In this document: in pieces, positions 33,105 through 40,909 of the stretch
Layout: every line of letters starts with the position of its first letter
How positions within the stretch are numbered: position 1 is the first letter of the stretch
Origin: a virus
DNA length: 64,000 nucleotides
Reading direction: 5' to 3' (one strand)
Virus record (IMG/VR): IMGVR_UViG_3300013101_001415
Notes under the pieces: generated by a model
The model's input: the letters and a program-made list of their open reading frames with translations, nothing else
Databases searched by the model: none
Told to the model about the DNA's origin: nothing
Program-made: the position numbers and the translations under genes

Positions 33105-35444
33105 ATGTTAAGATTATTAAATCCAAAAAGTTTTTGTAAAAATCTTAAACCAGTAACATCTATGATCACTACCACTAAATCTGGTGACTTTCATGAAGAA
33201 GGTTTGTTTAGTGAAGACATTTTTGGACCAGATGGTTCGCCAGATAGAAGAATTATATTCTCTTATTTTGAATTATATGGTTACGCTATTCATCCTGCTA
33301 TGTATAGAATATTATTACAAATAGATAGAAGAGTAGAAAAGTTTATTTCTACTGAAGAATCTTTTATTTTAGATAAAGATGGTATATTAGAGATAAACAA
33401 TAAAGGTGTTACTGGGATGAAAGAGTTTATAAAATTATTTCCTAGTATAAATTGGAGAGGTGGAACTGAATTAAGAAAAAAGCTTATTAAACTCATTAAA
33501 AAAGAAACTAAAAACAACACAATGTTTATTGATAAAATTATTGTAATTCCTCCAGATTTAAGACCTTCTATAAAAGGTGAAGATGGTAATAGGATGGATG
33601 ATCAATTAAATGATGTATATATTTCTGTTATGAGAAAGGCTTCTCAATTAAGATCTTCTGGTTCTGGTCCGTTATATGATTTATTAAATTATTCTATGCA
33701 ATTAGCAGTTATGGATCATGATAATTATATTAGATCAAAGATTGGTAAAAAGAAAGGTATTATTCGAGATCAAATGTTAGGAAAACGTATTGATTTTTCT
33801 GGTCGATCTGTTATAACACCTGATCCAAAAATAAAAATCAATGAAGTTGGATTACCACTAAGATTAGCTATTAGCTTATTTGAACCTTTTATTATGAACA
33901 GATTATTATATTCTGGTAAAGTTGATAAAGATGTTTTAGAAAAAGGTATCAAAGAATTTAATGGAATGGAACTTTCAACTGAATCTGTTAAAAGAGTAAT
34001 GAAAGGTATTAAAGAAGGAGATAAAATTCCAGAAAATCTTTATGAATTATTCTTTATACAAACAGAAGTTTCAATGATGGGTCGTGTTGTAGTAGTAAAA
34101 AGGGATCCAGTTTTACATACTCAAAGTTATTTAGCTTATTTTCCTGTCTTACATAGAGGCGATACAATGCTTATGTCTACTACTCAAGTTGGTGTTCATA
34201 ATGCAGATTTTGATGGCGATACAATGGCTGTATATCATCCATTAACAGATGAGGCTCAAGATGAAGCAAGAACAAGAATGATGAAACTAACTTCTGGAAC
34301 ATCATCTTCTGAGTTTATTTTTGGTTTATCAAAAGAAATATGGGCTGGGTTATATACTATTACAAAAGATAAAAAACCAACAGGGTCACCATTAGCAGTA
34401 TCTAATGAAGATATTGAAAATGCAACCGAACCGTATATAGCAGTTAAATATAGAGGTCAAAAAACAACAATGGGTAAAGCTATTGTTAATAGTTGCTTTC
34501 CAAAAGATATGGGTTATATGGAAGCACAAGCAACTAAAAAAACAATTAACTCAAAGATTGAACAGACTTATAATAAACATGGTGATGATATTATTAAAAT
34601 AGTTGTTGATAAATTAAAAGAAGTTGGATTTAAATGGGCTACCATCATGGCTCCATCTATGAGCTTAGATACTTTTGAATTACCAGCCTCGGTTTTAAAG
34701 ATTAAAGAAAAATTAAAAACAGCAGATCCAGAGGAAGCTCAAACTCTAATAGAGGAAGCTCAAAAAATATTAGAAAAGCATTTAGACAATACAGGATTTG
34801 GAGATCTTGCTAATTCAGGGTCTACTAAGGGATGGGGTCAACCAATGCAAATACTAGTTGCAAAAGGTGTTATCGCTGATCCTGACGGTAATGTTTTAGA
34901 TCCTATATCAGGGTCATTTGCTGATGGTTTATCTAATAGAGAATACTTTGATGCCTCTCAAGGAGCAAGAAAAGGTATTATTGATAGAGTTATTAATACA
35001 GCTGAAACAGGATATATGTCAAGAAAATTAGCTTATTTATTAAATACAGTAGAACTTGACCCTCGTATAAAAGATTGTAAAACAACAAAAACATTAAACA
35101 TAAAACTTAATGATGTTTTAATTAAAAGATTTACAGGAAGGTTTGTTATTAAAAACGGGAAATTGATGGAATTTGAAAGAGCTAAATTTAAAGTTGGTGA
35201 TATAGCTAGTATAAGAACTCCTATCTATTGTAAGTCTGAAAAAATATGTCATACTTGTTATGGTAAATTATTACAAAGACATCAAACTCCTTATATTGGA
35301 ATATTAGCTGCTCAACTTATTGGAGAAAGAGGCACGCAATTAATAATGAAAACTTTTCATACAGGTGGAGCAGTATCTTTAGTAAAACGTGATATGTTAG
35401 ATGATATTATTAATAATGATCCATTATCTGGATTGGAAAAATAA
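33105..35444 (+). CDS. multisubunit RNA polymerase beta-prime subunit, N-terminal and catalytic part (through bridge helix and trigger-loop start)
   Basis: GLFSEDIFGP (region A), VHNADFDGDTMAVYHP (universal Mg-binding motif), GARKGIIDRVINTAETGYMSRKL (bridge helix), CHTCYG...AAQLIGERGTQLIMKTFHTGG. Confidence 0.85.
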   Translation: MLRLLNPKSFCKNLKPVTSMITTTKSGDFHEEGLFSEDIFGPDGSPDRRIIFSYFELYGYAIHPAMYRILLQIDRRVEKFISTEESFILDKDGILEINNKGVTGMKEFIKLFPSINWRGGTELRKKLIKLIKKETKNNTMFIDKIIVIPPDLRPSIKGEDGNRMDDQLNDVYISVMRKASQLRSSGSGPLYDLLNYSMQLAVMDHDNYIRSKIGKKKGIIRDQMLGKRIDFSGRSVITPDPKIKINEVGLPLRLAISLFEPFIMNRLLYSGKVDKDVLEKGIKEFNGMELSTESVKRVMKGIKEGDKIPENLYELFFIQTEVSMMGRVVVVKRDPVLHTQSYLAYFPVLHRGDTMLMSTTQVGVHNADFDGDTMAVYHPLTDEAQDEARTRMMKLTSGTSSSEFIFGLSKEIWAGLYTITKDKKPTGSPLAVSNEDIENATEPYIAVKYRGQKTTMGKAIVNSCFPKDMGYMEAQATKKTINSKIEQTYNKHGDDIIKIVVDKLKEVGFKWATIMAPSMSLDTFELPASVLKIKEKLKTADPEEAQTLIEEAQKILEKHLDNTGFGDLANSGSTKGWGQPMQILVAKGVIADPDGNVLDPISGSFADGLSNREYFDASQGARKGIIDRVINTAETGYMSRKLAYLLNTVELDPRIKDCKTTKTLNIKLNDVLIKRFTGRFVIKNGKLMEFERAKFKVGDIASIRTPIYCKSEKICHTCYGKLLQRHQTPYIGILAAQLIGERGTQLIMKTFHTGGAVSLVKRDMLDDIINNDPLSGLEK

Positions 35445-35457
35445 AAGAGGTAAATTT

Positions 35458-39800: not shown

Positions 39801-40909
39801 AAGAATTAATTGGTTTTGATGAGGAAGAGGAAGGGGTTGAAGTTGTTTCTGGTCATATGATTAAAAAATCTCCTGGTGGTAAAATTGTTGATATAGAAGT
39901 ATTTAATAATTTAAAAGAAGGAAAATTTCCAGAATTAGATGCTTTAACTAAAAGAACGAGATCTAGATATGGTTTAAAACCTAAAGAAAAGTTTATATAT
40001 AAAGGAGAAGTCATTCAAGGTGTTTTAATTAAATTTAAACTAGAACAAGAACTTCCTGTTGGTATTGGTGATAAATTAACTAATAGACATGGCGCTAAAG
40101 GTATTGTTTCTCTTATTGAAAAAGAAGAAAATATGCCAAGAACTACTACTGGAGATAGAGTTGATATTATTTTAAATCCTATTGGAGTAGTTGGTCGTAT
40201 GAATGTTGGTCAATTATATGAAATGTATACTGGACTTATATCTAAAGAACTTGGAAGACAAATACTTAAATTAAATAATAAAACAAAAGTTATAGCATTA
40301 TTAAATAAAGTTCTTCCTAATCTTGATATGACAAAAAATAAAGAATTTAGTAAAAAGTTGATTAATAGTTTTAGAGCTATGTCAGATACTAAATTTAAAG
40401 AGTTTATGAAACAAGTTAAAGATTCTGGATCTATGACTATATTAATACCTCCATTTAAAGCTCCAGCTTATAAAGAAATATTAGCTGCTTTAAAAAGCTT
40501 AGGTCTTAAAGCTGGTTATAATTTAAAATTACCAGAATATAATACAAAAACAAAAAGTAAAGTTCCTGTTGGATATATGTATATGTTAAAATTGGAACAT
40601 ATAGCTAAAGATAAATTAGCTGCTAGAAGTACTGGTCCAGTTGTAAGTAAAACCTTTCAACCAACCGCTGGTAAAAAAAGAGAAGGTGGTCAAAGAATGG
40701 GTGAATTGGATACATATTCTTTTATTAGTTATAATTGTCCAAATCTACTTGCTGAATTTTTTGGACCGTTATCTGATGATCATATAACAAAGAATGAAAT
40801 TTTATCAGATATTATACAAACAGGTCATGCTAAATATCGTACAGCAAAATCATCACCTGTTAGAGATTTATTAAATAGTTATTTTATTAGTATGATGATA
40901 TGGAGATAA
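36818..40909 (+). CDS. multisubunit RNA polymerase beta subunit (unsplit)
   Basis: GDKLTNRHGAKGIVS (beta GDKxAGRHGNKGVIS), GGQRMGELDTYSFISYNCPNLLAEF (GGQRFGEME...), NVGQLYE; 1363 aa. Confidence 0.85.
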   Translation: MIQFKALKPFTHVVNGIRFPQDSKNPFIILYFSENSTLVDDYSKLNLKRVDVKKVIVPKTKIPYSFMSPELKKTYKAYGLVASSSTQSIPQKQNLMYDLTPFLNILDNAYKLKNYRARGGFILKNIIDKIFSSFPNNYQKIFMYSTNATKGMNKYIDRKIFPFVIELKKNKLYYDHLILNTIGDNSSRYRLLMKDRSIKFNRINLFLKNIKIIDDDEELENKINTATNTVIKKIKDDITPSNKNKFKQSIQKFFEKNPNTLEKAHNNDITNNDAKDIATASVLYRTTGDMGKSRKTTSKIPENKKTAALKVIDKKYADELLQPKKTETTAEDLVIQLSNVSNAVGNKSPEHIFEKRKIDFETNLKKDVVNSFKVLETKNIPLKFKTINIVKKPIRRGDLSPSNISTIKITMVDKFKREHEILLDVPNIADDGTFQINGKKKCLINQLVLCPITFPKKYDSKFESSYSTFHIWSKRTKREEYLEAYIGSYKVPLLVLLSFSFGFKETLKLYDIRYKITNEKPDKEVKWTVKVDDNQWILFENINTKLKEELIQSLVHSNISSYNLKAEFLTKQYFNDLIIKIAGRINSTFLIQSNLENIVDPVAKQVLINKQLPSELHLIMKYMSSKAVEGFVQKRNDISNQRIRNSEILVHLAQKQILAAHTEYKEQVLSGNKKAIFSISQTKVLSDFINSEIVADMEYANPIEEMATKTRVSPVGKAIGGIPDKQAIQNEGRNVHDSMFGNIDTLDTPEGENVGIVQQLTVDAFITSARGIIQTKDKKEGENSGLLSTTAAQIPFVENNDGNRVMFGCSQMRQAVPLRNPEIPMIQSGYESILTSVLSDDFIKKSPCNGKITRVTKDDISIKCSTGGNKVISITPVHLRSGSGKDTLSVFKPTVKVGQVVKYKSIIAEGSCITGGSIALGRSMCVALMPYKGFNFEDGIVISERIVKEGILNSLHGIVEEVEIAKDDRVVFINKLGAETIKGEPLLRKSIGEIEELIGFDEEEEGVEVVSGHMIKKSPGGKIVDIEVFNNLKEGKFPELDALTKRTRSRYGLKPKEKFIYKGEVIQGVLIKFKLEQELPVGIGDKLTNRHGAKGIVSLIEKEENMPRTTTGDRVDIILNPIGVVGRMNVGQLYEMYTGLISKELGRQILKLNNKTKVIALLNKVLPNLDMTKNKEFSKKLINSFRAMSDTKFKEFMKQVKDSGSMTILIPPFKAPAYKEILAALKSLGLKAGYNLKLPEYNTKTKSKVPVGYMYMLKLEHIAKDKLAARSTGPVVSKTFQPTAGKKREGGQRMGELDTYSFISYNCPNLLAEFFGPLSDDHITKNEILSDIIQTGHAKYRTAKSSPVRDLLNSYFISMMIWR

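Follow-up and report, generated by a model that had tools for sequence, protein, structure and literature searches.

Every cellular RNA polymerase has a moving catalytic element, the trigger loop, which in archaea is carried whole by the A'' polypeptide, the archaeal break lying before it. Among phages, multisubunit RNA polymerases (RNAPs) have been described in phiKZ-like phages and in AR9, as well as in the multimeric RNAP-encoding Caudovirales (mReC), which possess two RNAP sets, named a (~1005 + ~1365 aa) and b (~900 + ~1010 aa) (Weinheimer and Aylward, 2020, PMC7481178). The two mReC sets recall the virion and non-virion RNAP pair of the phiKZ-like phages. In cyanobacteria, as in phiKZ and AR9, the β' subunit is split after the double-psi β-barrel (DPBB) domain, while the archaeal split lies elsewhere (Sokolova, 2020, PMC7598289). 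In the phiKZ-like virion RNAP, the β' subunit has in addition a separate C-terminal-most piece, such as the 240-aa gp244 of SPN3US, and the origin of the split was left open (PMC7598289); the β subunit of this enzyme is also split and its pieces are not all adjacent. The non-virion enzyme (nvRNAP) of AR9 and phiKZ contains a fifth subunit, gp226 and gp68, respectively (PMC9209446). Outside the polymerases, a close comparison is nrdA of the Aeromonas phage Aeh1, an essential enzyme gene present as two open reading frames (ORFs), nrdA-a and nrdA-b, which were separated by the insertion of mobE (PMC3045599).

Here we describe a polymerase locus in a 64,000-nucleotide stretch of viral DNA (IMG/VR record IMGVR_UViG_3300013101_001415; the whole stretch is referred to as the window), in which the β' gene is interrupted at the trigger loop by a 91-aa Zn-ribbon ORF. 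We regard it as likely, and with good confidence, that this β' is a gene in pieces, whose halves assemble non-covalently without splicing, and that the 91-aa ORF is the remnant of a mobile gene. All the ORFs on which the original prediction for this locus had been built exist where it had placed them, on the + strand, and those of the polymerase region are the following:

33105..35444, + strand: RNAP β' N-terminal polypeptide (β'N), 779 aa, with clamp, NADFDGD active site, bridge helix and trigger helix 1 (Pfam, phmmer).
35458..35733, + strand: inserted Zn-ribbon gene, 91 aa, a stand-alone DNA-binding module of the homing-endonuclease type (profile search).
35736..36458, + strand: RNAP β' C-terminal polypeptide (β'C), 240 aa, with a predicted SI3-like β-sandwich, trigger helix 2 and regions G'/H (fused homologues, fold).
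36471..36818, + strand: Staphylococcal-nuclease-like gene between β'C and β, 115 aa (Pfam, PHROG).
36818..40909, + strand: unsplit RNAP β, 1363 aa, extended by roughly 300 aa at its N-terminus (Pfam, PDB matches).

The same arrangement is present, nearly base for base, in three independent assemblies, namely a 247-kb contig from NCBI (JAPOGZ010000001.1, assembly GCA_029935735.1) and those of JGI and ENA, so that the β' split is not an assembly artefact.

The core of the enzyme is recognized with E-values far beyond chance, as expected from the original prediction of a phage multisubunit RNAP. The product of 33105-35444 matches the Pfam Rpb1 domains 1, 2, 3 and 5 (the best being Rpb1_2, E 7.5e-28) and the bacterial β' chains of the PDB (E 1.7e-59, phmmer), and it contains HNADFDGDTMAV, the NADFDGD Mg-binding motif of the DPBB. 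A single ORF runs through Rpb1 domains 1-5, the DPBB site included. Rpb1_5, which comprises the bridge helix and the trigger loop, covers residues 608-758, and residues 744-759, TQLIMKTFHTGGAVSL, align to the bacterial β' sequence TQLTMRTFHTGGAASL, that is, trigger helix 1 (TH1); the ORF ends 20 aa past this helix, which confirms that β' is broken just beyond it. The β subunit, in turn, is unsplit as had been proposed: the single 1363-aa product of 36818-40909 matches the Pfam Rpb2 domains 3, 6 and 7 and the PDB β chains (E 1.2e-73), and both GDKLTNRHGAKG and GGQRMGELD, corresponding to the GDK..RHG.KG and GGQR.GE motifs of RpoB, are found in this one polypeptide. Residues 411-466 of β align to residues 118-172 of bacterial β (GTFxING), and roughly 300 extra residues are assigned to its N-terminus because the first conserved segment lies at ~411 instead of ~118. 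With regard to this extension (36818-38050), the jumbo-phage β-like profiles phrog_3148 and phrog_14872 likewise have ~700 residues before the aligned part.

Protein family and gene order place the window polymerase in the mReC lineage, as RNAP set a, with orthology and synteny to the contigs listed for that group. One of these, Ga0180432_10000070 (149,482 bp; locus L019 in our comparison), encodes a set a with a β' of 1005 aa and a β of 1367 aa, 55% and 54% identical to the window proteins, respectively, and is listed with this set and with a set b (900 + 1014 aa) (PMC7481178). The contigs of loci L006 and L008, closer relatives of the window, are listed with set b only (1011 + 904 aa) (PMC7481178), their set a being missing from the listing because a split β' fails its 800-aa minimum filter. 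The difference from the published enzymes is that β' is split into 779 + 240 aa in the subclade of the window; the text of PMC7481178 says nothing of a split, of an inserted gene or of a sigma-like partner. No polymerase set b was found in the window, nor in the 10 kb that follow it downstream (L036).

The product of 35736-36458 is the missing C-terminus of β', as had been suggested, and the evidence comes mainly from homologues in which the two parts are fused and from the predicted fold. No Pfam domain is detected in this protein, and tblastn against 50,697 phage records gave nothing at E<=1. Among 5.8 billion proteins, 95 homologues were retrieved, most of them stand-alone proteins of 225-244 aa with the same start column, and six of them fragments of longer proteins with PF04998, in which a sequence of the form ...TFHTGGAV...NDPLTTK continues straight into the 240-aa family. 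Nineteen columns are invariant across 56 β'C sequences, and both β' halves are conserved among the split relatives. In the AlphaFold (AF2) model of the 240-aa protein (pLDDT 72), an all-β domain at residues 1-96 is followed by helices; the best PDB match of the model by Foldseek is the β'C subunit of the phiKZ nvRNAP (8que_D, E 6e-4), and the β domain matches the tail of cyanobacterial SI3 (8h02, probability 0.98). The protein also matches phrog_2926 at 2.4e-5 over positions 12-239 of 241, the profile to which SPN3US gp244 belongs (1.2e-94). A profile built on β'C gave no match among the ORFs of the phiKZ, PBS1, VP4B and Simmy50 loci and missed even the true β'C homologues there, and the comparison of the β'C alignment with phiKZ gp79 by hhalign was not significant.

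As the model of β'C opens with an SI3-like β-sandwich, the break lies in a surface linker, at which bacteria tolerate large insertions (PMC10895346). According to the model, the interruption is between TH1 and the SI3-like insertion domain of the trigger loop, so that trigger helix 2 and regions G'/H are carried by the second polypeptide. In the bacterial enzymes bearing SI3 (E. coli and cyanobacteria; PMC10895346) the chain is continuous on both sides of the domain, whereas in the window it is broken at the N-terminal SI3 linker. The break had originally been placed at the site of the cyanobacterial γ/β' or archaeal A'/A'' split, and this has to be revised, since β'N is continuous through the DPBB site and ends ~20 aa after TH1.

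At the junction, the β'N stop codon is followed by a 291-nt insert and then by a new start codon. The window reads ...NDPLSGLEK, stop, then MKINNFLKQ..., and the fused homologues read ...TFHTGGAV...NDPLTTK-AILTKKLGQ...; the two are thus collinear, with no residues lost, no intein blocks added and 1-3 residues at most as an added tail. Two relatives of the window (L017 and L026, see below) do carry inteins in the β' gene, the 291-nt length keeps β'C in the frame of β'N, and phages offer an example of ribosomal bypass in gene 60 of T4, where a 50-nt gap is skipped by the ribosome. It might be supposed, then, that the halves are joined during or after translation, by a split intein, by bypass or by read-through, to give a full-length β'. 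We consider this highly improbable: the insert contains many stop codons in the β'N frame, the junction residues match those of the unsplit homologues and leave no space for intein halves, the insert has a translated ORF of its own in another frame, its 291 nt far exceed the gap bypassed in T4 gene 60, and a comparison of 35000-37000 with Rfam gave no family at E<=1. The simple forms of such joining were rejected, an intein because of the stops, the collinearity and the lack of room for intein halves, a group I intron because no Rfam ribozyme match was obtained at that threshold, and read-through because of the many stop codons.

The comparison with related loci establishes that the unsplit state prevails among the relatives and that the break is recurrent. 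In a set of 28 related IMG/VR loci, the break site is uninterrupted in 17, and 16 of these have a single β' ORF of ~1000 aa (for example 1007 aa in L009, and 1378 aa in L017 including an intein). The remaining 11 loci are split, all at exactly the same alignment column, with gaps ranging from 0 to 963 nt:

L018: gap of 0 nt, TAA directly followed by ATG.
L015: gap of 5 nt, no content.
L022: gap of 47 nt, no content.
L006 and L008: gap of 263 nt, an 86-aa membrane-like ORF.
L007: gap of 277 nt, no ORF of at least 30 aa.
L029: gap of 335 nt, a Zn-ribbon homologue.
L005: gap of 682 nt, a Zn-ribbon homologue and a second small gene.
L023: gap of 889 nt, a 295-aa endonuclease-like ORF.
L014: gap of 892 nt, a 293-aa endonuclease-like ORF.
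L004: gap of 963 nt, a Zn-ribbon homologue and a second small gene.

The 47-nt gap of L022 (7947-7995) contains an inverted repeat (TTTAGA...TCTAAA), and its size recalls that of the T4 gene 60 gap. The mobile-gene nature of the larger inserts is established by their similarities: the 295-aa ORF in the L023 gap is of nuclease type, as it matches the C-terminal part of phrog_3339, annotated as "homing endonuclease", at 8e-52, and the 293-aa ORF of L014, with a Zn finger, NUMOD3-like repeats and no strong family match, is probably so too. As in genes in pieces made by free-standing homing endonucleases, an inserted ORF divides the β' gene of the window in two, and relatives keep an intact allele. 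In a neighbor-joining tree of β, the split lineages are polyphyletic (the window clade, L018, L029, L022, L014/L015 and L023); the subclade of the window (the window and L004-L008) is uniformly split, and each of the other split lineages stands beside unsplit loci. From this polyphyly, at least five gains or losses of the split would follow.

Mobile elements are also present at other positions of the β' gene. In L017 (781-4917; IMGVR_UViG_3300033144_004935), an in-frame insertion of ~400 aa lies inside TH1 (IMR|CSDG...SCVQNHN|SFHTGG) and matches LAGLIDADG_3 at 1.1e-6, so that it looks like a LAGLIDADG intein in the catalytic trigger loop. In L026 (4037-8672; IMGVR_UViG_3300037468_000575), β' is interrupted at NADFDGD|TMA; the N-terminal piece ends in extra sequence, the C-terminal piece starts with an intein-C-like block (...GYDLTVEDNYTFASSDGVFVQD|T), and a 356-aa endonuclease-like gene (DUF7487, with a weak HNH_3 match) lies between the two, which looks like a split intein of the "fractured gene" pattern (PMC2677866). 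Such fractured genes rely on split inteins, as in L026 and unlike the window.

The gap series can also be read in the opposite order, namely that the split came first, through a nonsense mutation 5' of an in-frame Met with re-initiation at a tolerant linker, and that the gap was later colonised repeatedly by small genes, in which case the 91-aa ORF would not be its cause. The bare TAA-ATG of L018 and the 5-nt gap of L015 are what such an origin predicts, and the sequence of the unsplit L019, ...DIDLKTMKQYIQQ, has a Met at the start position of the split alleles; furthermore, the gap contents vary within the subclade of the window, from the Zn-ribbon alone, to the Zn-ribbon with a protein of 110-128 aa, to the 86-aa membrane-like protein, to no ORF. 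However, the loss of an endonuclease gene could equally well leave an empty gap, either direction fits the pairs L014/L015 and L022/L023, the use of the same exact column in at least five lineages fits site-specific homing, and the intein of L017 and the split intein with endonuclease-like gene of L026 indicate that mobile elements reach β' at other sites too. On balance, we hold this order of events to be rather unlikely.

The 91-aa ORF was the small inserted gene recognized at first sight in the β' split (35458-35733), and it has indeed its own ribosome-binding site, AAGAGG, 8 nt 5' of the ATG. It contains a CxC...CxxC motif, and the start codon of β'C lies 2 nt past its stop codon. No Pfam domain was found in this ORF or in its L029 homologue, and neither Pfam nor PHROG revealed a nuclease domain (HNH, GIY-YIG or PD-(D/E)XK) in it, so that it does not have the nuclease of a homing endonuclease; the weak matches are to the N-terminal part of the "homing endonuclease" profile phrog_3339 (E 0.016, and 0.0026 for the L029 homologue). 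A word-indexed search for homologues found three proteins only. By contrast, an exhaustive profile search with the ORF and its two close homologues against 1.84e9 representative proteins yielded 418 matches, the best 150 of which are mostly larger proteins (up to 915 aa), often with the module repeated. When ten of the larger module proteins were compared with Pfam, seven had DUF7487, two a weak MTES_1575 nuclease match, and one a TnsA-like nuclease together with NUMOD3, so that the module recurs in proteins of the DUF7487, PD-(D/E)XK and NUMOD3 kinds; by its domain composition, the architecture around the Zn-ribbon module is that of free-standing homing endonucleases. A 344-aa ORF between β' and β in L028 has the Zn-ribbon module at its N-terminus, and its C-terminus is HNH-looking by eye only, no HNH being detected there by Pfam. 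In short, the search of 35458-35733 for an intein or homing-endonuclease signature, which had been recommended, gave a divided answer: a Zn-ribbon DNA-binding module typical of homing endonucleases is present, and there is neither an intein nor a nuclease domain. The 91-aa ORF is most likely a remnant or a co-opted piece of a homing endonuclease, an origin that we infer from its module, and is not itself a nuclease.

An intact ORF with a good ribosome-binding site, ending 2 nt before β'C, might instead encode a working accessory factor, such as a Zn-ribbon transcription factor or an aid to the assembly of the β' halves, in place of a selfish remnant. Its identity of 52-59% is kept in relatives, a homologue occupies the same gap in the distant locus L029, and in Aeh1 nrdA assembly came to require sequences that the mobile element had contributed (PMC3045599). 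Against this, among the unsplit loci the module occurs in L028 only, as part of the 344-aa ORF, it belongs to multi-domain proteins of the endonuclease type, and it evolves faster than the polymerase (52-54% identity against 82-85% for β'N in the same genomes). The split enzyme evidently does without the Zn-ribbon in most split loci, since it is missing from L006, L007, L008, L014, L015, L018, L022 and L023. An accessory function is accordingly judged quite unlikely.

In the reading that we prefer, that of a gene in pieces with a mobile-gene remnant between its halves, β' is broken at the trigger-loop tip, where a linker connects TH1 to the SI3-like domain, and the 91-aa insert would be a decayed or domesticated remnant of a free-standing homing-endonuclease gene. 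The 779-aa and 240-aa polypeptides would be made by separate translation, without splicing, with β'C translation probably coupled to the 3' end of the preceding Zn-ribbon ORF, and β'N, β'C and β would assemble non-covalently into an enzyme in which helix 1 of the trigger loop is provided by one chain and helix 2 by the other.

Several points weigh against this reading. The non-covalent assembly and the retained activity are deduced from conservation only, and the bare TAA-ATG of L018 and the Met at the equivalent position of the unsplit L019 would also fit a point mutation that split the gene before mobile genes entered the gap. The tree of β was built by neighbor joining without support values. 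What connects the 91-aa ORF with homing endonucleases is a shared DNA-binding module, its direct PHROG E-values being weak; no nuclease remnant is found in the window, and the ORF, intact and 52-59% identical in at least five relatives, may have a function of its own. As to the C-terminal half, the β'C profile reached only E 0.67 against PDB sequences, which is not significant, with a weak motif-level alignment to the HVEVMVRQMLR and SFQET regions, and hhalign of the β'C alignment with the single gp244 of SPN3US was not significant either, so that the link between β'C and gp244 rests on the PHROG profile.

The phiKZ-like virion RNAP offers a precedent for the break point. It shares with the window a β' that is broken just past TH1 and a separate C-terminal piece of ~240 aa: phiKZ gp80 (phrog_2962) aligns to residues 594-753 of the window β'N and ends ~15 aa after TH1, the two β' pieces of the window match phrog_2962 at its end and phrog_2926 at its start, and a small separate C-terminal polypeptide of the gp244 type, starting after TH1, is present in the window. 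The differences lie elsewhere. In the window the DPBB lies within an unbroken β'N, β is a single chain and the pieces are neighbours, whereas the phiKZ-like virion enzyme has its β' split after the DPBB as well; hence the phiKZ/AR9 type of division, with β' split after DPBB-A and β also split, is not found. Nor are the core subunits split in the fashion of the AR9/phiKZ nvRNAP (PMC9209446), whose β'C (~650 aa) in PBS1, VP4B, Simmy50 and phiKZ is unbroken through the trigger loop, unlike that of the window. The view that the layout represents a distinct arrangement is not supported, as the family is the published mReC lineage and the same β' break occurs in phiKZ-like virion RNAPs. With Aeh1 nrdA (PMC3045599), the β' of the window has in common an essential enzyme gene in two ORFs with a mobile-derived ORF in the middle, relatives with unsplit alleles, and the lack of splicing; it differs in that the insert lost, or never had, a nuclease domain, and in that no insertion-derived tails are evident apart from 1-3 residues.

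Two conserved genes precede β' in the window:

30850..32301, + strand: candidate sigma-like promoter-specificity subunit, AR9 gp226/phiKZ gp68-like, 483 aa (fold comparison).
32409..33101, + strand: conserved gene directly 5' of β', function unassigned, 230 aa, with the N-terminal ~130 aa conserved (tblastn).

The first, two genes 5' of β', keeps its position in most related loci and has more than 560 homologues. Pfam and PHROG provide no annotation for it, and its profile has no meaningful match among PDB sequences; by fold comparison only, it is a structural homologue of the sigma-like gp226 of AR9 and gp68 of phiKZ, and has the fold of this fifth subunit. On the basis of its fold it is a candidate promoter-recognition subunit of the mReC polymerase, and the earlier statement that no sigma-like gene lies nearby is not supported. 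By tblastn, almost every related locus has the second gene in this place, at 27-48% identity, and the gene has no match in Pfam or PHROG. The Lys-rich C-terminal tail of its product (...LYKKFKAEKDPTKKD...) resembles, by eye, the small membrane/coiled-coil ORFs (...YLYKKYK...EKDPSKRN...) found in the trigger-loop gaps of L004 (3428-3760) and L005 (7611-7997).

Downstream of β'C, the thermonuclease-like gene predicted to precede β is present: the product of 36471-36818 matches Pfam SNase at 3.5e-7 and phrog_452 endonuclease at 1.8e-23. A gene of this kind occurs at this position only in the subclade of the window (L004, L005, L006 and L008), and is absent from L007 and from all the more distant loci. 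The intergenic gaps across the polymerase genes are tight, no terminator-like sites were found from 32200 to 41100, and a scan for sigma-70-type promoters gave a count below the shuffled expectation, which is uninformative.

In general, the window, which is from a jumbo phage, is AT-rich (22-32% G+C per 2-kb windows, mostly 25-30%), and all its called ORFs are on the + strand except for three short antisense ORFs. Its gene content includes a ribonucleotide reductase, a UvsX-like recombinase, two topoisomerase II subunits, an SbcCD-like nuclease and helicases, and fits a large phage with T4-like replication. A few other genes deserve mention. The 464-aa protein of 28841-30235, with three repeats of a ~17-aa motif (GYPDIGDMIETPDFSNS / GYPYITDMVKDAKFNES / GYPDVAEMIHEPAFNSS), lies directly 5' of an Amidase_2 gene (30247-30762) and is possibly a virion or lysis protein. 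For ORF 49272-50687 (in 48039-50687), which comes after an ATPase (phrog_1297), the phrog_1314 label "HNH endonuclease" looks misleading, as Pfam indicates DUF2201 / VWA-like metallopeptidase. Near the replication genes, a PTPS (QueD-like) gene and a radical-SAM gene (56431-56859 and L036:11303-12346) may belong to a 7-deazaguanine DNA-modification pathway.

The enzyme family of the window was already known, and so was the break point, from the phiKZ-like virion polymerases; it is therefore no new kind of enzyme. What is new is a split allele within mReC, a series of gaps by which the break is tied to mobile genes, the assignment of the 91-aa ORF to an endonuclease-type module and a gp226-like gene beside the polymerase core. 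This gp226-like gene links mReC to the jumbo-phage enzymes, which the mReC phylogeny left out. Because of the shared gp226/gp68-type subunit and the same trigger-loop break point, it may tentatively be proposed that mReC set a is close kin of the phiKZ/AR9 polymerases and that the window and its relatives display how the jumbo-phage enzymes came to be fragmented, a possibility to which we give somewhat less than even weight. The stages of such a process would be an intact gene, the insertion of an intein or endonuclease gene, a decayed remnant, and finally two adjacent ORFs without a spacer. If true, this would directly support the old proposal that the RNAP genes of jumbo phages were split by mobile elements that were later deleted.

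On the practical side, survey length filters, such as the 800-aa minimum applied to mReC, miss split alleles. More broadly, close relatives with the trigger loop intact, broken or intein-bearing represent a natural comparison of how much covalent continuity is needed in this element, and the gap series, from a full-size endonuclease-like gene through a 91-aa remnant to nothing, constitutes comparative evidence on how phage polymerase genes become multi-piece.

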